NCBI GenBank assembly: GCA_964445355.1
Contig: CAYUKQ010000001.1
Location: 12,277 to 76,276 of the forward strand
DNA from: an uncultured Gammaproteobacteria bacterium
GTDB lineage: Bacteria; Patescibacteriota; Microgenomatia; CAYQLK01
Direction of reading: 5' to 3'
DNA: 64,000 nucleotides
In this document: piece after piece, positions 8,174 through 43,719 of the stretch
Layout: the number at the start of each line of letters is the position of its first letter
Position numbering within the stretch: position 1 is the first letter of the stretch
Notes under the pieces: generated by a model
What the model saw: the letters and a program-made list of their open reading frames with translations, nothing else
The model's database searches: none
What the model was told of the DNA's origin: nothing
Translations under genes and position numbers: made by a program

Positions 8174-9829
8174 ATGGAAAACATTTTTTCACAATTGGCT
8201 GTCGCGCTCAGTTTATCTTCATTAATTGGATTCGTTGTACTAAAATTCAAACTTCCTCTCGTAGTCGCTTACCTGCTTGCGGGAGTTGTTATTTCGATCT
8301 TGAGTATAATTGACCCCGGTCATTCCCCGGCATTTGAAGCCCTGCCAGAGATCGGTATTGCCTTTGTTCTTTTTTTGATCGGTATGGAATTAGATTTAAG
8401 AGAGGTCAGGTCTCTCGGTATACCGGTTATTGTTTCAGCGGTTGGGCAGGTTTTTATTACAACCCTTGCCGGATTTGTAATTGCGACTTCTTTAGGTTTT
8501 GAACCGGGAGTAAGTCTTTACCTTGGTCTTGGGCTGGCATTTTCTTCGACGGTGGTTGTGGTTAAGATGTTACTGGAAAAGCGTGAATTAACCTCACTGC
8601 ACGGCAAACTATCGATCGGTATTTTGCTCATCGAAGACATGATTGCAATTGTTGTATTAATGCTGATTTCCGTCAGCGACTCCGCACTTGGTCTGGGACT
8701 TCAGCAGAGCCTGCCGATTCTAACTCTCATACTTAAGGCAATTGGTCTGTTTGTACTTACATTCCTTCTTTCGAGGTTTGTACTTGAGCGCATTTTTGAC
8801 GCTGTGGCAAAATCGGTTGAACTTCTTTTTCTCACAGCCATTACCTGGTGTTTTGTCTTTACTACACTTGCAGTGGTGTCGGGGTTTTCAGTCGTTATTG
8901 GTGCTTTTTTGGCAGGCGTTGCGCTGGCTTCATCGCCGTATCATTTGCAGATCCAGGGGAAAATCAAACCACTTAGAGACTTTTTCTTAACATTATTCTT
9001 TGTTTACCTTGGTTTGCAGGCCAATATTACCGATGTGTTTAATTATTGGCCAACAATTCTTATTTTTACGGTGTTCGCTTTAGTTATTAAGCCAATTATT
9101 TATATTTTTCTCCTTGGTGCTTTTGGTTTTAGAAAACACACAATGTTTCAGTCGGGCCTCAGTCTTTCTCAAATCTCTGAATTTTCTCTGGTTGTACTTC
9201 TTGTGGGAGTCCAAGCCGGTATTGCCTCACAGGAATCACTTTCCGTTATGGCAGCAGTTGCCATTCTGTCAATAATATTTTCATCAACACTAATTAGTAA
9301 TTCCAAACTGATCTACCGTCTTGTTGGCAAGTTTGTTGTTATTTTTGAGCATCATTCAAAGACGCATATTTTTGAATCTCACACCGATCAAGAGCTAGAG
9401 GATCATGTGGTTATTATCGGCGCTGATCAGGTCGGCGGTCCAGTCGTTAATTATCTTCATCGCGAAAAAATCCCCATAATCGTTCTAGATTTTAATCCTC
9501 ACATTGTTCAGGAATACCGCCAGAGAGGTGTTAATATAATTTATGGTGACGCTGGCGATCCTGAAATACTCGAAGGATTGCAGCTTAACAAATCACGGTT
9601 GATCATATCCACGGCCAATGATTTGACCGATAACGAAATGATTATTCTTGAAGCAAAAAAGAAAAAATCACAAGCAGCGATCGTCGTCAGAGCAAGCGAC
9701 AAAGAACACGCACAAATTTTAACGGAGCTCGGTGCCGATTATGTTATCCTGCCGGAACAGGTTTCCGGGGATTTTTTGCTAACACACCTTAAGACCCACT
9801 GGCCAAAAGTGAAATTTCCGAAGATTTAA
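8174..9829 (+). CDS. CPA2-family monovalent cation:proton antiporter with C-terminal RCK/TrkA-N domain (KefB-like)
   Basis: About 12 TM helices followed by a Rossmann segment VVIIGADQVGGPVVNYL. 551 aa. Confidence 0.8.
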   Translation: MENIFSQLAVALSLSSLIGFVVLKFKLPLVVAYLLAGVVISILSIIDPGHSPAFEALPEIGIAFVLFLIGMELDLREVRSLGIPVIVSAVGQVFITTLAGFVIATSLGFEPGVSLYLGLGLAFSSTVVVVKMLLEKRELTSLHGKLSIGILLIEDMIAIVVLMLISVSDSALGLGLQQSLPILTLILKAIGLFVLTFLLSRFVLERIFDAVAKSVELLFLTAITWCFVFTTLAVVSGFSVVIGAFLAGVALASSPYHLQIQGKIKPLRDFFLTLFFVYLGLQANITDVFNYWPTILIFTVFALVIKPIIYIFLLGAFGFRKHTMFQSGLSLSQISEFSLVVLLVGVQAGIASQESLSVMAAVAILSIIFSSTLISNSKLIYRLVGKFVVIFEHHSKTHIFESHTDQELEDHVVIIGADQVGGPVVNYLHREKIPIIVLDFNPHIVQEYRQRGVNIIYGDAGDPEILEGLQLNKSRLIISTANDLTDNEMIILEAKKKKSQAAIVVRASDKEHAQILTELGADYVILPEQVSGDFLLTHLKTHWPKVKFPKI

Positions 9830-9831
9830 TT

Positions 9832-10413
9832 ATGTCCAAAAAAAAACTAGCGATACTGACACTTATTTTATTTGCCTTACTGGTAGGAGCAGCATTTTAT
9901 TTCCGCCTTAAAGAAGCTCGTCTTGATATCAATGAGCCGGATTCTAATCAAAACACTGCAACGGCAACTGATCCAAGTGAAAAAGATGTCTCGGTTCAGA
10001 CATCTACCGATACAAGCGGGAAAAATATTTTTTCATCAATCGACAGTAAGCTTCAGGTGATCTATCCCGCCTCATGGCAGCTTACTAACCTACCCAGATC
10101 TAATCCCGATATTCTTCAGTCAATTACTCTTCAATCAGCAGGAATATTGGCAACCGTTGATATTTCAGAGCAGTATGACAGGATCATTGATAATTTCATT
10201 AACTGTCAGATAAATACCTGTGAAGAAAAAATTATCAACACTAAGCCGGTTATTATTGAGAATTCTCCGCAGGATACACCCAAGATTATTTCACTAACAA
10301 CTATTTTTAATCGCAAGGTCTACAGAGTCACCTTCAATATTGAAAGCGGTACCAATCAAGCGCAAAATACCCAAGCCGTTCAGGACGTAATTTCCACGAT
10401 CAAGTATTTTTAG
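9832..10413 (+). CDS. Hypothetical secreted/membrane-anchored protein
   Basis: N-terminal TM/signal (LAILTLILFALLVGAAFY). No recognisable domain. Start 3 nt after upstream stop. Confidence 0.5.
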   Translation: MSKKKLAILTLILFALLVGAAFYFRLKEARLDINEPDSNQNTATATDPSEKDVSVQTSTDTSGKNIFSSIDSKLQVIYPASWQLTNLPRSNPDILQSITLQSAGILATVDISEQYDRIIDNFINCQINTCEEKIINTKPVIIENSPQDTPKIISLTTIFNRKVYRVTFNIESGTNQAQNTQAVQDVISTIKYF

Positions 10414-14352: not shown

Positions 14353-14381
14353 TTGACAATTATACTATCCTATAGTATAAT
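14353..14381 (+). promoter_or_regulatory. Consensus sigma70-like promoter TTGACA-17-TATAAT in front of the GC-rich ORF
   Basis: TTGACA at 14353-14358, 17-nt spacer, TATAAT at 14376-14381, in AT-rich sequence. SD AAGGAAGG at 14401-14408. Confidence 0.5.
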
Positions 14382-14418: not shown

Positions 14419-14853
14419 TTGATCGAAACCCTCAGGAAGCCGCCCCGTGCGCTCAAGATCTACTACCTCGTCCTCGCCGCCTTCTTCGCGGTCTGGGCGG
14501 GCACAATTGCCGGGCAAGCCCCGGACAGCAACACGACCGCCGGCATCATCGCCGTCTGGTTCGGCTACGCCTTCGTTCCGGTCATCGCTCTGGCGTTCGC
14601 GACCGAGTCGCGCCGACCCGTCCTCACCCAGGTCATTCTCTGCTCGAGCGGGAGTGTACTGATCCTGGCAGGGTGGGTGATCGGATACGATTCGGTCAAC
14701 GATCCAGCGCCAATGGTCTGGTACGAGCCGATCATCTTTGTCGCAATCGCGGCGTTGATGGTCTTCCCGATGATGGTCTTCACCCTCATCTACCTCGGCA
14801 TCAGCAAGCTCGCCGGCCACTTCGGCCTCATCCCTACCTTCCTCAGAGCCTAG
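14419..14853 (+). CDS. Small 4-TM membrane protein encoded by an anomalously GC-rich (about 60%) ORF. Function unknown.
   Basis: ORF track gives 14353..14853 using a TTG inside the -35 box. The in-frame TTG at 14419, 10 nt after AAGGAAGG, coincides exactly with the jump in GC content. Four hydrophobic helices. Codon usage is GC3-rich, unlike neighbours. Confidence 0.6.
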   Translation: MIETLRKPPRALKIYYLVLAAFFAVWAGTIAGQAPDSNTTAGIIAVWFGYAFVPVIALAFATESRRPVLTQVILCSSGSVLILAGWVIGYDSVNDPAPMVWYEPIIFVAIAALMVFPMMVFTLIYLGISKLAGHFGLIPTFLRA

Positions 14854-31704: not shown

Positions 31705-32190
31705 ATGAAATGTCCGTTCTGTTACTCAAGTTCCAGCAAGGTCATCGATAAAAGAGAGTCGGATGATAAAAGAACAACTAGAAGACGTCGGCAGTGTCTT
31801 AAGTGTTCCAAAAGATTCACGACTTTTGAACGTGTCGAGACCATTGACTTGCTTGTTGTCAAAAAAGACGGCCGACGAGAACACTTTGACCGAAATAAAC
31901 TCAGATCAGGTATCGTCAAAAGTTGCGAAAAAAGACCCGTACCTGCAGAGATGATCGAATCAACAGTCGACAAAATCGAAACAGAGCTTCGCAAGCTCAC
32001 TGGCAATGAGATCCACTCCAAGAAACTAGGCGATTTGGTAATGAAACACCTCAAAAAAGTCGATGAAGTTGCCTATATTCGTTTTGCTTCGGTCTACCGG
32101 CAATTTACTGATCTTAATGATTTTGAAAAAGAACTCGCGTCTTTAACCAATAATCTAAGAGCTCGTAAAGCCTCGACTACCAAGAACTAA
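31705..32190 (+). CDS. nrdR: Transcriptional repressor NrdR
   Basis: MKCPFCYSSSSKVIDKRESDDKRTTRRRRQCLKCSKRFTTFERVE: Zn ribbon plus ATP-cone, canonical NrdR. Confidence 0.9.
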   Translation: MKCPFCYSSSSKVIDKRESDDKRTTRRRRQCLKCSKRFTTFERVETIDLLVVKKDGRREHFDRNKLRSGIVKSCEKRPVPAEMIESTVDKIETELRKLTGNEIHSKKLGDLVMKHLKKVDEVAYIRFASVYRQFTDLNDFEKELASLTNNLRARKASTTKN

Positions 32191-32282: not shown

Positions 32283-34949
32283 ATGGCGTTGCCAAAATCA
32301 AAACTGAAGGTTAAGGATCTGCAAAAATTTGGTAAAGAAATACCCGCACCTCCAGCTGATCTTCCCGAGCCAGGCCTTTCAGAGAATGCTGCCTATATTG
32401 CCAAGACCAGATACGCTTTTCGTGACGAAAACGGTACTCCGATTGAAGGTCCTAAAGAAATGTTCTGGCGCGTAGCTTACAACATCGCCACCGCAGACCG
32501 TAATTACAATGGTAATTCCACCAGTAAAACCCTAGAAACCGCGCGCAAATTCTACAACATGATGGCCTCCCAAGAGTATATTCCCAACACTCCAACCATG
32601 GTTAATGCTGGTAAACCCAATCAGCAGCTTTCAGCCTGTTTCGTTTTGCCGGTTGAGGATAGTATGACTGCTATTCTCAAGACCATGAGTGATATGGCGA
32701 TGATTCACAAGAGTGGTGGCGGAACCGGATTCTCTTTCTCACGCCTCAGGCCGTACGGAGATGTCATCGGTTCGTCGCGTGGTACCACCGTTGGTCCGGT
32801 ATCGTTTATGCAAGCTTACAATGATGTAACCACCCAAATTAAACAAGGCGGTGTCAGGCGGGGAGCAAATATGGGTATCCTTCACATTACCCACCCTGAT
32901 ATTTTGAGATTTGCAGTTCACAAAGTTGATGAATTTTCTTTAACCAATTTCAATATTTCGGTCACTGTTACCGAAGATTTTATGGAGACCGTTCGTTCCG
33001 ACAGTCGCTTCATCGAAGGCGATGAAAGCCTTAATGTTGAAGAGTTAGAAGAGATCGTTTCAGAAATTAGGGCCGCACAAGCTATCAGAGATGTTGATCT
33101 GAAACTTGTTAAGGTCGAAGAGGGTGTCAAAAAACTTTACGAACTTACCAAGGCTACCCAGGAGGGTGAGGGATACGAGCTTATTAATCCGCGCACCAAT
33201 CAAGTCGCCGGCAAACTAAACGCCAAAAAAGTCTTTGACCTCATTACACGTCTTGCTTGGCAGTACGGTGATCCGGGTATGATCCTCATCGATCGGATCA
33301 ACAATTCACGCGCCAATCCCGTGCCCCGATTCGGCATGATTGAAGCAACCAATCCTTGTGGTGAACAGCCGCTCCATCCTTACGACGCGTGTACACTAGG
33401 CTCGATCAATCTTAATAAATTCCGCAAAGGCAAAACAATTGATTGGGATAGGCTAAAAGATGCGATCCATGAAAGTATTCACTTCCTGGATAATGTTTTG
33501 GATATGAATGAATATCCGCTCCCCGAGATCCATAGAACTACCAGAGCAATCAGGCGCGTAGGTTTAGGGGTGATGGGTTTTGCTGATCTGTTAGCAGGGC
33601 TCGGAATCGGTTATAACACCGATGAGGCTTTTAAAAAGGCTGAAGAGATCATGAAATTTTTCCAGGAAGAGAGTGATAATGCCTCAGAAGATCTTGCTAA
33701 GATCCGTGGCAACTTTGGTGCTTACGAAGGATCGATCTATGATGGTGTTCGCCCAATGCGCAACGGCGCAAGAACCACAATTGCTCCCACCGGTACTATC
33801 TCAATGCTGGCCGACTGTTCCAGTGGAATTGAGCCTCATTTTGCTTTAACTTATGCAAAAAATACTGTTGAAGGCAAAAGACTCTTCAATACCATTGAGG
33901 AATTTGTTAAGGCAGCCAAAAAAGAAAACATTTATTCTGACGAATTACTGGAAAAGATTCAGGACAACAAAGGTTCGGTTCAGGGGCTCAAAGAAGTGCC
34001 TGAGAGTTTGCAAAAGGTTTTTGTTGTTGCCGGGGATATTAGTCCGGAACAGCACGTCAAAATGCAGGCAGCTTTCCAGCACTATACTGACAATGCTATT
34101 AGCAAAACCATCAACTTCAATAACGACGCAACAGTAGAAGATGTGCGTAACGCTTATTGGCTAGCCTACGAACAGGGATGTAAGGGGATCACGATCTACC
34201 GCGACGGGTCACGCGACAAGCAGGTTTTGGAAACCAAAAAAGAGGATTCTTACTATGATCAATTAGCCGGTAAGAAAAAATCCGCAAACAATAGTGCTGA
34301 ACAACCGCATTTCCCGATCTTGCCGATTCGCAAACCCACGCCATCCGAAGCTTGGGGAATGCGTATCAGAAAACCTTCCGATGTCGGAAATGTTTATACA
34401 TCAGTATTCCGTAACGCCCAAAACGAACCGGTTGAAGTCTTTGTTAATATCGGAAAATCCGGCGCTTATGTTTCAGGCGCTGCAGAGGTTACGGGAAGAT
34501 TAGGGTCTCTTGCTTTGAAATACGGTGCAAGTTTGGAAGAAGTGGCTTCTGAACTGGTTGGTATCAGCTGTGGAACGCAATACGGCGTAGGCCCGAACGC
34601 AATTTATTCAGCTTTTGACGCAGTCGGTAAGTCCCTTATTGAGATTGCTACTGCCAAACAGCTTAATTTGCTTTCTCAGGATCTGATTTCTCAAGACGAA
34701 AAACCCGTTTCTGCAGACGACAATCTTTCTTCGTCCAACAGCCACACACGACCCAGCTCTGGTACGGTTGTACAAGAGTCTTTGATCAAAGAAGAGCCGT
34801 TGGCACTGGAAATTAAATCGCCTCTGGAGCACAAGGTTGTCACTCTCGATATCAACAACTCGTGTCCACAGTGTGGTAGTCCGCTCGCCTTCAAAGAAGG
34901 ATGCAAAAGCTGTATTAATCCGCTTTGCGGCTGGTCCAAATGTAGCTAA
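32283..34949 (+). CDS. nrdJ: Ribonucleoside-diphosphate reductase, class II (adenosylcobalamin-dependent), with C-terminal Zn-ribbon
   Basis: Active-site NPCGEQPL, 888 aa. C-terminal CPQCGSPLAFKEGCKSCINPLCGWSKC. Confidence 0.85.
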   Translation: MALPKSKLKVKDLQKFGKEIPAPPADLPEPGLSENAAYIAKTRYAFRDENGTPIEGPKEMFWRVAYNIATADRNYNGNSTSKTLETARKFYNMMASQEYIPNTPTMVNAGKPNQQLSACFVLPVEDSMTAILKTMSDMAMIHKSGGGTGFSFSRLRPYGDVIGSSRGTTVGPVSFMQAYNDVTTQIKQGGVRRGANMGILHITHPDILRFAVHKVDEFSLTNFNISVTVTEDFMETVRSDSRFIEGDESLNVEELEEIVSEIRAAQAIRDVDLKLVKVEEGVKKLYELTKATQEGEGYELINPRTNQVAGKLNAKKVFDLITRLAWQYGDPGMILIDRINNSRANPVPRFGMIEATNPCGEQPLHPYDACTLGSINLNKFRKGKTIDWDRLKDAIHESIHFLDNVLDMNEYPLPEIHRTTRAIRRVGLGVMGFADLLAGLGIGYNTDEAFKKAEEIMKFFQEESDNASEDLAKIRGNFGAYEGSIYDGVRPMRNGARTTIAPTGTISMLADCSSGIEPHFALTYAKNTVEGKRLFNTIEEFVKAAKKENIYSDELLEKIQDNKGSVQGLKEVPESLQKVFVVAGDISPEQHVKMQAAFQHYTDNAISKTINFNNDATVEDVRNAYWLAYEQGCKGITIYRDGSRDKQVLETKKEDSYYDQLAGKKKSANNSAEQPHFPILPIRKPTPSEAWGMRIRKPSDVGNVYTSVFRNAQNEPVEVFVNIGKSGAYVSGAAEVTGRLGSLALKYGASLEEVASELVGISCGTQYGVGPNAIYSAFDAVGKSLIEIATAKQLNLLSQDLISQDEKPVSADDNLSSSNSHTRPSSGTVVQESLIKEEPLALEIKSPLEHKVVTLDINNSCPQCGSPLAFKEGCKSCINPLCGWSKCS

Positions 34950-34966
34950 TAATTAGCCTGTAGTAT

Positions 34967-34995
34967 TTGACTTTTAGCTTCAAATCTGGTATAAT
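34967..34995 (+). promoter_or_regulatory. Consensus-like sigma70 promoter TTGACT-17-TATAAT in AT-rich DNA immediately upstream of a GC-rich ORF
   Basis: TTGACT 34967-34972, 17-nt spacer, TATAAT 34990-34995. SD GGAGG 35021-35025. TTG start 35032. Confidence 0.5.
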
Positions 34996-35031
34996 TACCC
35001 TTAAGAAAATTAACATTTCTGGAGGTTAGTT

Positions 35032-35370
35032 TTGCCTGCTCATACACTCCCAATCTATCAGGTTCAGTGTCTTTCGGGACACGTATACAACGCCGCAGTT
35101 GGTTCTCAGCTCGAGGCTGACTGCAAGCAGCGCGAGGAGGACGGCTTCATTGACGCCTTAATTCTGCCTCATGACGATTGCGAATATTGTCTCCAAATCG
35201 CAATCAAGAGCGCAATTCAAAACTACCGCGCACTTTGCGGAGATTGGGGTTGCGTTGGCGACTGTGGTGCCAAGTCTCCCGATCAATGTCGGGGAGCAGA
35301 CGACATCGATAAATATCGATCTTTGCTCACGGCCGCCGACAAGCGCAATCGTCTTCCCGAGACCGCCTAA
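35032..35370 (+). CDS. Small acidic Cys-rich protein (8 Cys), GC-rich ORF, unknown function
   Basis: 112 aa. Cys at CxxC (DDCEYC) and CGDWGCVGDCG clusters. About 60% GC versus 35-40% background. TTG start 7 nt after GGAGG. Confidence 0.55.
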   Translation: MPAHTLPIYQVQCLSGHVYNAAVGSQLEADCKQREEDGFIDALILPHDDCEYCLQIAIKSAIQNYRALCGDWGCVGDCGAKSPDQCRGADDIDKYRSLLTAADKRNRLPETA

Positions 35371-35383
35371 AAAGTTCGCACAT

Positions 35384-35420
35384 CTCCCCGCCTTAAAAAA
35401 GCGGGGAATTTTTTTTAAAA
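35384..35420 (+). terminator. Rho-independent terminator
   Basis: ccccgc-cttaaaaaa-gcgggg hairpin followed by a T-run (aattttttttt). Confidence 0.65.
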
Positions 35421-35494
35421 AATTTGACAATATTTACAAATATCCTATAATCCGAGACGGACTTTGTACCTTCACAAGGAGACAGTTTACGTCA

Positions 35495-36496
35495 ATGGCA
35501 AACACCTCAAGAGATTTGTGGGCAACTGCCCGCGCCATGGTCGAGCGACCCAAGGTCATCCTTGCGGCCGATGAATCGACCGGAACAATGGGCGACCGGC
35601 TCAGCTCGATCGGAGTGGAGAACACTCTCGAAGCCCGAACTGCATTCCGTCGCCTTCTCTTCTCAGCCCTGGGAATCGAAGGATACGTCGGGGCAACCAT
35701 CCTCTTCGAGGAAACGCTCGCCGATCCCGAACTGGTCGAACTTTTGACCAGCAAGGGTATCATTCCGGTGGTTAAGATCGACCGGGGGCTGGTCGAGTAT
35801 GGGGCTAAGGGCGAAAAGATCGTCCGCGGCTTCGACACATCGGAACTGATCCCGCGTCTCGAGCAGTACGCCAGGCAGGGTGCGAGAGCAACCAAATTCC
35901 GCAGCCTTTTCGGTATCACTGACGATGCTGATCAGCTACCGACACGCGAGTGCATCGCACTCAATGCCTTCGCTCAGGCTCAGTTTGCCAAGCTGAGCCA
36001 GGAGTTCGGCATGGTACCGATGGTCGAGCCCGAACTCGATTTCAAAGGTGCTCATGACATCCGGGTTTGCGAGGAGGCCTCGGACGAAGTGCTCGAGGCT
36101 GTTTTCGAGCAGCTCATGATCTTTGGGGTCGATCCGTCCGGCATGATCCTCAAGCCGTCAATGATCACCTCCGGCCAGAGCGCCCAGAGCCGCGCTTCAG
36201 CAAGCGAAGTTGCGACTCGGACCTTAAGCACGATGCTTCGATGGGTCCCGAATGTGATCCCAGGCATTGCTTTCTTGTCTGGCGGTCAGTCGGACGAGGA
36301 AGCCGATGAGAATTTGGCCGCCATCGCCCGGCATGGTCGCGAACAGATGTCGCCGTACAGGTTCACTGCCTCCTTCGGCCGTGGACTTCAACGCCGCGCA
36401 CTCAAAGCGTGGGGAGGCCAAGAGGCAAACACCGAAACGGCCCAGCAGGTGTTCATCGACAAGTGCCGCGAAACCAGCGAAGCTAGCGTCGCCTAA
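35495..36496 (+). CDS. fba: Fructose-bisphosphate aldolase, class I (Schiff-base type), GC-rich ORF
   Basis: ILAADESTGTMGDRL, KIDRG (Lys-containing strand), ILKPSMI and FLSGGQS motifs of class I FBA. ATG 35495 preceded by AAGGAG. The ORF-track ORF 35171..36496 begins upstream, inside the previous gene, terminator and promoter. Own near-consensus promoter TTGACA-16-TATAAT at 35424-35451. Confidence 0.75.
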   Translation: MANTSRDLWATARAMVERPKVILAADESTGTMGDRLSSIGVENTLEARTAFRRLLFSALGIEGYVGATILFEETLADPELVELLTSKGIIPVVKIDRGLVEYGAKGEKIVRGFDTSELIPRLEQYARQGARATKFRSLFGITDDADQLPTRECIALNAFAQAQFAKLSQEFGMVPMVEPELDFKGAHDIRVCEEASDEVLEAVFEQLMIFGVDPSGMILKPSMITSGQSAQSRASASEVATRTLSTMLRWVPNVIPGIAFLSGGQSDEEADENLAAIARHGREQMSPYRFTASFGRGLQRRALKAWGGQEANTETAQQVFIDKCRETSEASVA

Positions 36497-41529: not shown

Positions 41530-43719
41530 ATGTCAGAGAGTAGTTTTCGGACTAATCAAATTCCAAACATGACCATGCTGGAGCTTCGTGTTCCACGAGA
41601 TTCAGAAGTTTCTTGGGAAGCTACTGTACAAATGTTGACGAATCTTAAAGGAAACTTTGGTTTTGATAAATACGCAAAACTCTTTCGCCGCCACATCCCG
41701 TCAATGTCGCTCGAAATCGCAACAATTAATCAATCAATTAAGTTTTTTGTTATCGTTCCTACCAACTTGCGATCTTTTTTCGAAAGTCAGCTAATTTCTC
41801 AATACCCTTTAGCGGTTGCGGTTGAAGCAGAGAATTATTTAACAGATTGGTTTTCTCAAGGCTACATCATGTCCGGCGAGTTGGTTTTGGGTAAGCCGGC
41901 ATATTTTCCCATCCGCACAATGAAAGATTTTGATGCATCAGTTGATCCGCTTTCCTCGGTACTTGGTGTAATGTCCAAAACACTACCTGAGGAGAAAATT
42001 CTGATCCAAATTAACTTATCTGGAGCAAGCGGTAGCTGGTCAAGTACCGCCAAGGCAATATTAAATCCGCCAAAAGTTGAGGGGCAGACCCCATCAAAAG
42101 TCACAGGGGCAAATTTTATCGAGGAAAAAATCTCACTTCCGGGATTCAATACAGGCATACGGATAGTTGTCGGCGCGCCAACTGAATCGCAGGCAAAAGG
42201 ACTTTTGGACTCCGTTGCCGGATCATTCGGAAGTTATGCAAATGGCGAAGGCAATTCTCTCCGACTTTCCAAACCCAGCAATAGAAAAAAGAAAAAATTT
42301 ATTCAAGCGATCTATGACCGTAGTGCTGATCAAATACCATCAGCACAAGTTCTGAGTACCAAAGAAGTGGCCTCTCTCTGGCATCTGCCGTCAAAAAGTC
42401 TCACTACGATCCAAAATTTATCATGGGGAACATCTGTACTTTCTGAATCACCGGAAAATCTTCCGACCGCCGAAAATATCGAGCGGGATACTATTAATTA
42501 CTTCGCTAGAACCGAACACAAAAACCAGATCAAAACATTTGGGATCAAGCATAATGACAGACGAAGACACTTCTATGTTGTCGGAAAATCCGGTACTGGT
42601 AAATCTACCTTAATTGCAAATATGGCAATTAACGATATTCGCAATCGTCAGGGGCTTGCGATCGTTGATCCGCACGGCGACCTTTGCGACATTCTTCTTG
42701 ATTACATCCCTTCATATCGCGTCAACGATGTAATCTATTTTGACCCTTCCGATCAATCTCGAACTTTTGTTATTAATCCACTTGAAGTAAAAAATGAAGC
42801 TCAAAAAGAACTGGTTGCTTCAGGTATTGTCGGAATATTTAAAAAACTCTTTGCTTTTTCCTGGGGACCCAGATTGGAGCATATCCTTCGTAACACGATT
42901 CTAACTTTAGTCAATGTACCTGACTCATCTTTTATGGATGTTCCGCGAATACTCACTGACAGGGAATTTCGTGCCGAAAAACTCAAATATATAGATGATC
43001 CTGTCTTGCTTCGTTTTTGGAGAGATGAAATTGACAATGTCCAGCCAAGACAATTGGAAGAGGCCGTCGCGCCGATTTTGAACAAAGTTGGACAGTTCTT
43101 ATCAAGCAAGACCATTAGAAATGTCGTTGGTAGGCCCAAGTCGACGATCGATATTGAAGAAGTTATGAATTCTGGAAAAATTCTTTTACTCAATTTGTCT
43201 CAGGGTTATCTTGGTGAAGACTCTGCGGCACTACTTGGTGCGATGATTATCACAAAATTTCAAATTGCAGCCATGAACAGAGTTTCGCTTAAAGAAGCTG
43301 ACAGAAAAGATTTTTTCCTTTACGTTGATGAGTTCCAGAACTTTGCAACTGAATCTTTTGCCAAAATTCTTTCAGAGGCGAGAAAATATCGTCTGTGTTT
43401 GATCATGGCCAACCAGTTCATGTCGCAAGTGCCGGAAGATATTCGCAATGCAATTTTGGGTAATGTTGGATCGCTGGTTACTTTTTTGGTCTCTGCTCAA
43501 GATGCACCCATACTTTCCAGGGAGTTCTCCGATATTTATAAAGAACCAGAGTTCACTTCGCTAGCTAATTTTCAAATCTTACTAAGACTACTTATTGATG
43601 GGCACGCATCTAGACCATTTTTTGCAAACACTCTTCCGTTACCGCGGTCAAAAACTGAGCGAAGAGAAAAAGTGCTTGAACAATCAAGAGCAAAATACAC
43701 CAGAGAAATTACGGTCTAG
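41530..43719 (+). CDS. P-loop ATPase of the TraG/TraD/VirD4 (T4SS coupling protein) / HerA-FtsK-like class
   Basis: Walker A VVGKSGTGKST followed by IVDPHGDL. Walker B FFLYVDEFQNF. 729 aa. N-terminal about 340 aa of unknown fold, with no obvious TM helices. Confidence 0.5.
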   Translation: MSESSFRTNQIPNMTMLELRVPRDSEVSWEATVQMLTNLKGNFGFDKYAKLFRRHIPSMSLEIATINQSIKFFVIVPTNLRSFFESQLISQYPLAVAVEAENYLTDWFSQGYIMSGELVLGKPAYFPIRTMKDFDASVDPLSSVLGVMSKTLPEEKILIQINLSGASGSWSSTAKAILNPPKVEGQTPSKVTGANFIEEKISLPGFNTGIRIVVGAPTESQAKGLLDSVAGSFGSYANGEGNSLRLSKPSNRKKKKFIQAIYDRSADQIPSAQVLSTKEVASLWHLPSKSLTTIQNLSWGTSVLSESPENLPTAENIERDTINYFARTEHKNQIKTFGIKHNDRRRHFYVVGKSGTGKSTLIANMAINDIRNRQGLAIVDPHGDLCDILLDYIPSYRVNDVIYFDPSDQSRTFVINPLEVKNEAQKELVASGIVGIFKKLFAFSWGPRLEHILRNTILTLVNVPDSSFMDVPRILTDREFRAEKLKYIDDPVLLRFWRDEIDNVQPRQLEEAVAPILNKVGQFLSSKTIRNVVGRPKSTIDIEEVMNSGKILLLNLSQGYLGEDSAALLGAMIITKFQIAAMNRVSLKEADRKDFFLYVDEFQNFATESFAKILSEARKYRLCLIMANQFMSQVPEDIRNAILGNVGSLVTFLVSAQDAPILSREFSDIYKEPEFTSLANFQILLRLLIDGHASRPFFANTLPLPRSKTERREKVLEQSRAKYTREITV

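Follow-up and report, generated by a model that had tools for sequence, protein, structure and literature searches.

A rare family of small cysteine-rich proteins, mostly from ultra-small bacteria, with a putative Cys-His-Cys-Cys metal site

The window, by which we mean the whole 64-kb stretch of DNA that was analysed, carries a gene for a protein of 112 residues at the position given in Table 1. An earlier reading, made from the sequence alone (the sequence-only reading), had called this open reading frame and described its product as acidic, with eight cysteines and two cysteine-containing strings, all of which we confirm. The cysteines are residues 13, 31, 50, 53, 69, 74, 78 and 86; DDCEYC spans residues 48–53 and CGDWGCVGDCG spans residues 69–79, with C86 following. 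The protein contains 12 Asp, 5 Glu, 5 Lys and 6 Arg, giving a net charge of –6. Searching the 64-kb window with a hidden Markov model of the N-terminal module described below revealed no second copy of the gene.

Table 1. Features of the 112-aa gene and its product, in window coordinates.
Feature	Position	Strand	Description
Sigma-70-type promoter	34967..34995	+	–35 TTGACT (34967–34972), 17-nt spacer with extended TG, –10 TATAAT (34990–34995); 11/12 match
Conserved 5' leader	34996..35031	+	Shine-Dalgarno GGAGG (35021–35025), 6 nt upstream of TTG
Coding sequence	35032..35370	+	112 codons, TTG start, no internal Met, 8 Cys, pI 4.8
N-terminal family module	35056..35190	+	residues 9–53 (45 residues); predicted strand-strand-helix-strand, then start of long helix; C13/H17/C50/C53 as putative CHCC metal site
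Second module	35236..35289	+	C69, C74, C78 and C86 in the loop that tips the hairpin of helix 51–70 and helix 88–106
Intrinsic terminator	35385..35416	+	stem TCCCCGC (35385–35391), 9-nt loop, stem GCGGGGA (35401–35407), A, T8 (35409–35416)

The independent promoter and terminator that had been claimed for the gene are both present. The promoter is kept in five orthologous loci despite saturated synonymous sites, and it has an ATTTGA...TCAAAT dyad symmetry that is present too in the promoter of the neighbouring gene for a class I fructose-bisphosphate aldolase (FBA), which starts at 35495 and has its own promoter (12/12 match) at 35424–35451. Within the 5' leader, AAGAAAATTAACAYTT...GGAGG is nearly invariant across orthologues. 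The terminator hairpin has a minimum free energy of –13.2 kcal/mol and a z-score of only –1.28 against shuffled sequences; it was absent from a scan for consensus terminators because of the length of its loop. Its stem and T-run are kept in the orthologous loci L004, L005, L011 and L028, while L001 has a slightly different stem. Judged by these signals, the gene is transcribed separately, from a strong promoter of its own.

Comparison with orthologues marks the frame as a real gene, far beyond a chance open frame. Public data contain six proteins with 65–100% identity to the 112-aa protein, in which all eight cysteines are invariant, and one further orthologue at 63% identity; all eight cysteines are kept in the orthologues with 63–74% identity. 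Third codon positions predominate among the differences, and Nei-Gojobori dN/dS is 0.08–0.19 for orthologue pairs with dS of ∼0.9 or more, at which dS is saturated; on these ratios, the gene is under purifying selection. A chance open frame at this position is ruled out by the conservation of orthologues, by dN/dS and by the conserved expression signals. In contrast, two frames that overlap the gene, 35171..36496 on the forward strand and 35158..35430 on the reverse strand, are best explained as chance long open frames of GC-rich DNA. In L001, L004, L005, L011 and L028, the ∼70 nt comprising promoter, leader, Shine-Dalgarno sequence and TTG (34960–35031) are better conserved than the synonymous sites of the coding sequence, and thus constraint extends past the –35 and –10 hexamers.

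Upstream of the 112-aa gene lies a gene for a ribonucleotide reductase (32283–34949) with barrel, all-alpha and TSCPD domains and a cysteine-rich, zinc-ribbon-like tail, CPQCGSPLAFKEGCKSCINPLCGWSKCS; NrdR is encoded just upstream of it, at 31705..32190. The window and the loci L001/L010, L011, L004, L005, L028 and L029 form what we term the window clade, in which the region from the reductase to a ferric-reductase-like gene keeps its synteny as far as the contigs extend, with NrdR upstream where they include it. What lies between the reductase gene and the 112-aa gene varies: in L001 there is an ORF of 94 aa (9655–9939) and in L028 an AT-rich ORF for a membrane protein of 247 aa (550–1293, GC 0.30), neither with a match in Pfam.

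No match to the 112-aa protein was found in Pfam or NCBIfam, and Pfam, NCBIfam, PHROGs and PADLOC gave no consistent match to 48 members of the family to which it belongs, returning only scattered single matches (Anti-TRAP in two members, plus a single PHROG and a single PADLOC model). Sequence searches of the PDB with the protein and two profiles yielded nothing credible (4jgl at E 0.16, an HA2-GFP fusion at E 3.7, and a designed repeat protein). When 1.84 billion cluster representatives were searched exhaustively with phmmer, 88 relatives came up at E ≤ 1e-3, almost all of them matching residues ∼8–55 only; these are clusters at 50% identity and include a few low-complexity false positives (P0009, P0048). 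Most of the 88 clusters are singletons from short metagenomic contigs, and the sole name among them is 'hypothetical protein [Candidatus Uhrbacteria bacterium]'. We found no description of the family in the published literature. A hidden Markov model of the shared module matches the 112-aa protein at 4.3e-27, and the C-x3-H...C-x2-C tetrad, Q12, G16, G38, D41 and A42 are all present; the signature of the family is a YNVQC-x-GH ... G-[FY]-LDAL ... ECPxC module. From these sequence comparisons, the protein is a member of a rare, undescribed family found mostly in ultra-small (CPR) bacteria.

Scanning genomes with the domain alignment gave matches in metagenome-assembled genomes (MAGs) of Uhrbacteria, Magasanikbacteria and Zambryskibacteria, and thirteen further metagenomic loci, many of them from groundwater, carry family members. 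Two MAG records that bear orthologues, L010 and L011 (CAYOLO010000002.1 and CAYQLK010000007.1), are titled 'uncultured Gammaproteobacteria bacterium', yet their gene content is CPR-like. Since both this gene content and the other hosts of the family point to CPR/Patescibacteria, the label is probably wrong. Outside the window clade, the family gene has as its neighbours ribosomal S16 and an FAD oxidase; CTP synthase; L25 and DUF3048; an F420-ligase-like gene and LytR; FolD and a serine recombinase; DnaB; NUDIX and SIMPL; RecG; or an MFS transporter. No gene neighbour was found to be conserved across lineages among the contexts compared. In one locus (L008) the member sits in a phage-like run of ∼30 small ORFs on the same strand, with PHROG matches in 3 of 10.

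What the family shares is the N-terminal module. Its hidden Markov model, run on 102 fetched proteins, delimited 103 domain copies, among which C13 is conserved in 101, H17 in 98, C50 in 101 and C53 in 100; C31 is kept in 90 and replaced by Ala in 12, while Q12, G16, G38, D41 and A42 are nearly invariant. The consensus around the CxxC is E-C-P-x-C, with Pro in 54 of the 103 copies, and the window protein has CEYC. Cysteine counts behind the module are bimodal: of 100 proteins, 36 have none there and another 36 have four. In all 39 proteins that match the four-Cys pattern the unit begins 14 residues past the CxxC (15 in the window clade). Given this all-or-none count and fixed spacing, the four C-terminal cysteines behave as a single optional unit. 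The window protein is of the long form, with four cysteines in its tail and C69 lying 15 residues past C53. The metal- or redox-like character that the sequence-only reading saw in the cysteine clusters is supported. The family is acidic, with a median pI of 4.7 and a median net charge of –7 among the 86 members of 140 aa or less. Fused or tandem forms of the module were noted among P0032, P0075, P0023, P0063, P0072, P0008, P0014 and P0091: three proteins carry two N-terminal modules in tandem, P0032 and P0075 end in a basic tail that resembles a DNA-binding helix (AARxxGWxV...RGxxK), and a further Cys/His cluster (C-x-R-C-x-H-P ... C-x-C-P) lies at the C-terminus of P0023, P0063 and P0072. 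Some family proteins bear acidic extensions.

An AlphaFold2 model built on an alignment of 48 members has a pLDDT of 83.7 and a pTM of 0.72, whereas the six close orthologues by themselves gave a pLDDT of 43. The model consists of strands at residues 10–13 and 18–20, a helix at 26–36, a strand at 43–45, a helix at 51–70, the cysteine loop at 71–87 and a helix at 88–106; pLDDT is 92–95 over residues 11–60 and falls to 63–69 in the four-Cys loop, the least confident part of the model. C13 and H17 flank the turn of the first hairpin and C50 and C53 lie at the N-terminus of the long helix, and from these positions in the model we infer a treble-clef-type geometry for the CHCC site. The sequence-only reading had proposed structure prediction with a fold search as a check; confident as the model is, Foldseek searches with it found no significant neighbour in the PDB (best match Skp1, E 0.04, TM 0.28) or in BFVD (best E 0.15). 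These whole-model searches were dominated by helical hairpins, so that a match to the N-terminal module by itself could be missed. The statement that the protein has no motif that can be placed thus holds across Pfam, NCBIfam, PHROGs, PADLOC, PDB sequences and the folds of PDB and BFVD. The outcome that the sequence-only reading had named as refuting its proposal, a confident relationship to a widespread family such as the ferredoxins or rubredoxins, was likewise not found.

The interpretation that we tentatively favour is that of a non-enzymatic protein with two metal sites, the metal likely being zinc, that binds another macromolecule and is perhaps switched by oxidation. It would be a small, acidic, cytoplasmic protein without a signal peptide, composed of two metal-stabilised modules. 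In the first (residues 9–53), Cys13 and His17 on the hairpin turn and Cys50 and Cys53 at the helix N-terminus would hold the predicted zinc; in the second, formed by helices 51–70 and 88–106, the tip-loop cysteines 69, 74, 78 and 86 most likely clamp a second metal ion. The protein would work as a small adaptor or regulator, through binding to another macromolecule, and its zinc-thiolate sites could make it sensitive to oxidation. Because the family is acidic, binding to protein is favoured over direct contact with DNA, and the tandem-domain and tailed fusion forms are as expected of a binding module. No match to a catalytic family was found in Pfam, NCBIfam, PHROGs or PADLOC.

Were the four-Cys module or the CHCC site to bind an Fe-S cluster instead, the protein could be a WhiB-like sensor of redox state, O2 or NO, or an electron carrier, a reading that we regard as unlikely. 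Its attraction is that the four loop cysteines are closely spaced and conserved all or none, that the protein is small and acidic like the Wbl proteins, and that the hosts are of the CPR type, organisms reported as anaerobes in one published source (PMC5220378). However, the cysteine spacing, C-x4-C-x3-C-x7-C in the window protein and C-x4-C-x5–8-C-x3-C in relatives, fits neither the ferredoxin pattern CxxCxxCxxxCP nor the Wbl pattern, and no Fe-S family of Pfam or NCBIfam matched among the 48 members. Furthermore, the module is missing in about half of the family, which argues that the core function is independent of it.

Against our favoured reading of a non-enzymatic metal-site protein stands the CPxC consensus, which in this position, at the start of a helix, also typifies redox-active dithiols. 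C50-x-x-C53 might be such a dithiol, making the protein a redoxin-like reductant, for example of the upstream class II ribonucleotide reductase. The E-C-P-x-C stretch does lie at the N-terminus of a helix right after a strand, in the manner of the CPxC of glutaredoxins and DsbA, and in the window clade the gene directly follows those of NrdR and the reductase. Nevertheless, we consider this proposal distinctly unlikely: there is no thioredoxin-fold match by sequence or by structure, the window protein departs from CPxC, and C13 and H17 are conserved together with the CxxC, as in a four-ligand metal site. As for the reductase, its adjacency is absent in all other lineages, the 112-aa gene has its own promoter, and relatives have unrelated ORFs between the two genes.

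The base composition of the gene raises the question of its origin. The window has a GC content of 0.39 and a mean gene GC3 of 0.37, compared with a GC and GC3 of 0.53 for the 112-aa gene and of 0.59 and 0.68, respectively, for the FBA gene. Elsewhere, in most of the low-GC hosts examined and with no aldolase nearby, the family gene ranks first or close to first in its locus by GC3 (L007, L009, L012, L013, L014/L025, L021, L022 and L024), with z-scores of +1.4 to +6.9 where computable; the elevation is absent in a GC-rich host (L006) and in the phage-like contig (L008). Because dS is saturated among the orthologues while their GC3 stays at 0.53–0.59, the high GC is not the scar of a fresh transfer; selection on codon usage or repeated transfer may have produced it. 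Exact TTGAC-N17–19-TANAAT promoters occur at only four places in the 64 kb (14353, 19327, 34967 and 35424; 1.1 expected by chance), and three of these precede genes that are GC3 outliers, namely a membrane-protein gene, the 112-aa gene and the FBA gene, two of which use TTG starts. The membrane-protein gene, of ∼144 aa (likely 14419..14853, with a TTG start after GGAAGG), is the third compositional outlier (GC 0.58, GC3 ∼0.79), is preceded by a perfect TTGACA-17-TATAAT promoter at 14353–14381, and its product has no match in Pfam.

Such a composition would also be compatible with a mobile, phage-derived small protein, for example one for host takeover or anti-defence, that has repeatedly landed in CPR chromosomes. 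The differing positions of the gene among lineages, its one occurrence in a phage-like run of ORFs and the large serine recombinases found within a few kb in two loci all lend this idea something. Yet IMG/VR, scanned twice, yielded no viral copy, PHROGs and PADLOC gave just one isolated and inconsistent match each on the 48 members, and within each lineage the position is stable, with housekeeping flanks. Saturated dS with kept synteny indicates vertical inheritance in the window clade, and we judge a phage origin improbable.

The aldolase itself clearly belongs to class I (PF00274 at 4.5e-86; NF033379 above its cut-off). Its orthologues share 61–98% identity inside the window clade and 54% or less outside it. 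The next relatives, at 52–54% identity, are in other CPR-like contigs and have no member of the 112-aa family within 6 kb, while the named matches, at 45–49%, come from the non-CPR lineages Gemmatimonadales, Dehalococcoidia, Gaiellaceae and Ferrovibrio. According to the published work consulted, class II FBA prevails among CPR bacteria, with class I in some lineages. Class II being typical of CPR, and given this distribution of relatives, it is plausible that the aldolase was acquired, though not recently. The FBA genes at 52–54% identity, in L030/L031 (6001–7002) and L032 (2003–2998), are GC-rich for their hosts (0.60 vs 0.44). Directly before the FBA gene of L030/L031 lies a gene for a DUF8128-DUF87/TrwB-like ATPase, and the window has a gene of the same type at 41530..43719.

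Next to the aldolase gene, the family gene was found in 8 of 8 members seen of the window clade. The ribonucleotide reductase tails of the window and L028 are almost identical, marking close relatives, so this adjacency carries little independent weight. Both genes are GC-rich, and their codon usage is alike, enriched in C-ending codons and in AAG, GAG and CAG. The element TTTGAC-N7–10-CAAAT, an ATTTGA/TCAAAT dyad over the –35 hexamer and spacer, occurs twice in the window, at 34966–34985 and 35423–35441, that is, in the promoters of these two genes only (0.62 expected per window by chance; 16 of 100 shuffles reach two copies). The dyad could be a shared operator or a sign of shared promoter ancestry. 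A more elaborate scenario would make the family a regulator specific to CPR, with a new small fold and a zinc-thiolate oxidation switch, and in this lineage co-regulated with the acquired FBA through a shared ATTTGAC...CAAAT operator, with selection for strong expression holding the GC3 of both genes high; we give this scenario little credence.

The sequence-only reading had gone further and proposed that the gene was transferred together with the aldolase and encodes an accessory factor for it, either a metal or redox cofactor protein or a regulator. Its case is the adjacency, the similar composition and the dyad restricted to the two promoters, but the adjacency extends no wider than one syntenic clade, FBA is absent beside the family gene in ten other contexts (nine genomic and one phage-like), the sister lineages of FBA have no family gene within 6 kb, and high GC, seen as high GC3 also in family members without an aldolase nearby, is no marker of shared acquisition. 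Class I aldolases employ a Schiff-base lysine and are independent of metal cofactors. With this metal-free enzyme, and with separate transcription units divided by a terminator, an accessory role is highly improbable, and a function of the 112-aa protein tied to the neighbouring aldolase is not supported.

If the favoured interpretation, a non-enzymatic protein with two metal sites, is true, it would define a new small metal-binding domain family, built from a CHCC module of ∼45 residues and an optional four-Cys hairpin clamp. As far as the searches reached, the family is confined to CPR/Patescibacteria, most of whose lineage-specific proteins are without an assigned function. The 112-aa protein, modelled with confidence and predicted to have two metal sites, is a compact, testable target for structural and metal-binding studies. 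The analysis also corrects a tempting misreading, in that the GC-rich neighbour of an acquired enzyme need not be its accessory factor. The finding is a modest one, since an uncharacterised small cysteine-rich protein in CPR bacteria will not surprise specialists.

Several known systems invite comparison. Membership of the rubredoxins or zinc ribbons, which have two CxxC (CPxCG) knuckles on a three-stranded sheet, was rejected, as the protein has one CxxC only, its first knuckle is C-x3-H, and neither a consistent Pfam match in 48 members nor a fold match was found; 4Fe-4S ferredoxins were rejected on the absence of the CxxCxxCxxxCP motif and of any match in Pfam or NCBIfam. WhiB-like proteins resemble the family in their length of ∼100 aa, acidity and four-Cys unit, and in being chromosomal, with one member here on a phage-like contig and some with basic tails. 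They differ in cysteine spacing, in lacking any sequence match to the family, in that the four-Cys unit is optional here, and in belonging to Actinobacteria rather than CPR; with the pattern C-x(n)-C-x2-C-x5-C absent and no Pfam match, membership was rejected. Like glutaredoxins and NrdH redoxins, most members have a CPxC-like motif where a helix begins after a strand, and the window gene lies downstream of that for a ribonucleotide reductase. These redoxins are set apart by the thioredoxin fold with its CxxC on helix 1, which is not seen here, by the CEYC of the window protein, by the extra conserved Cys/His pair and by a reductase linkage that is not conserved, and we likewise rejected membership of the thioredoxin, glutaredoxin and NrdH families.

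ZAS anti-sigma factors, such as RsrA, use a Cys/His/Cys/Cys zinc redox switch. The likeness lies in a small acidic protein with a Cys-His-Cys-Cys set that includes a CxxC, in the proposed binding to a partner and in a possible oxidation switch, whereas the family lacks the H-x3-C-x2-C motif, has its His beside the first Cys and has a predicted fold with beta strands. Membership was rejected: the window protein has H47-x2-C50-x2-C53, in which H47 is not conserved in the family, and none of the contexts has a sigma factor gene next door. With treble-clef zinc fingers the family shares the character of a small, putatively metal-stabilised domain and, in the predicted model, the placing of two ligands on a hairpin turn (C13-x3-H17) and two at the N-terminus of a helix (C50-x2-C53).
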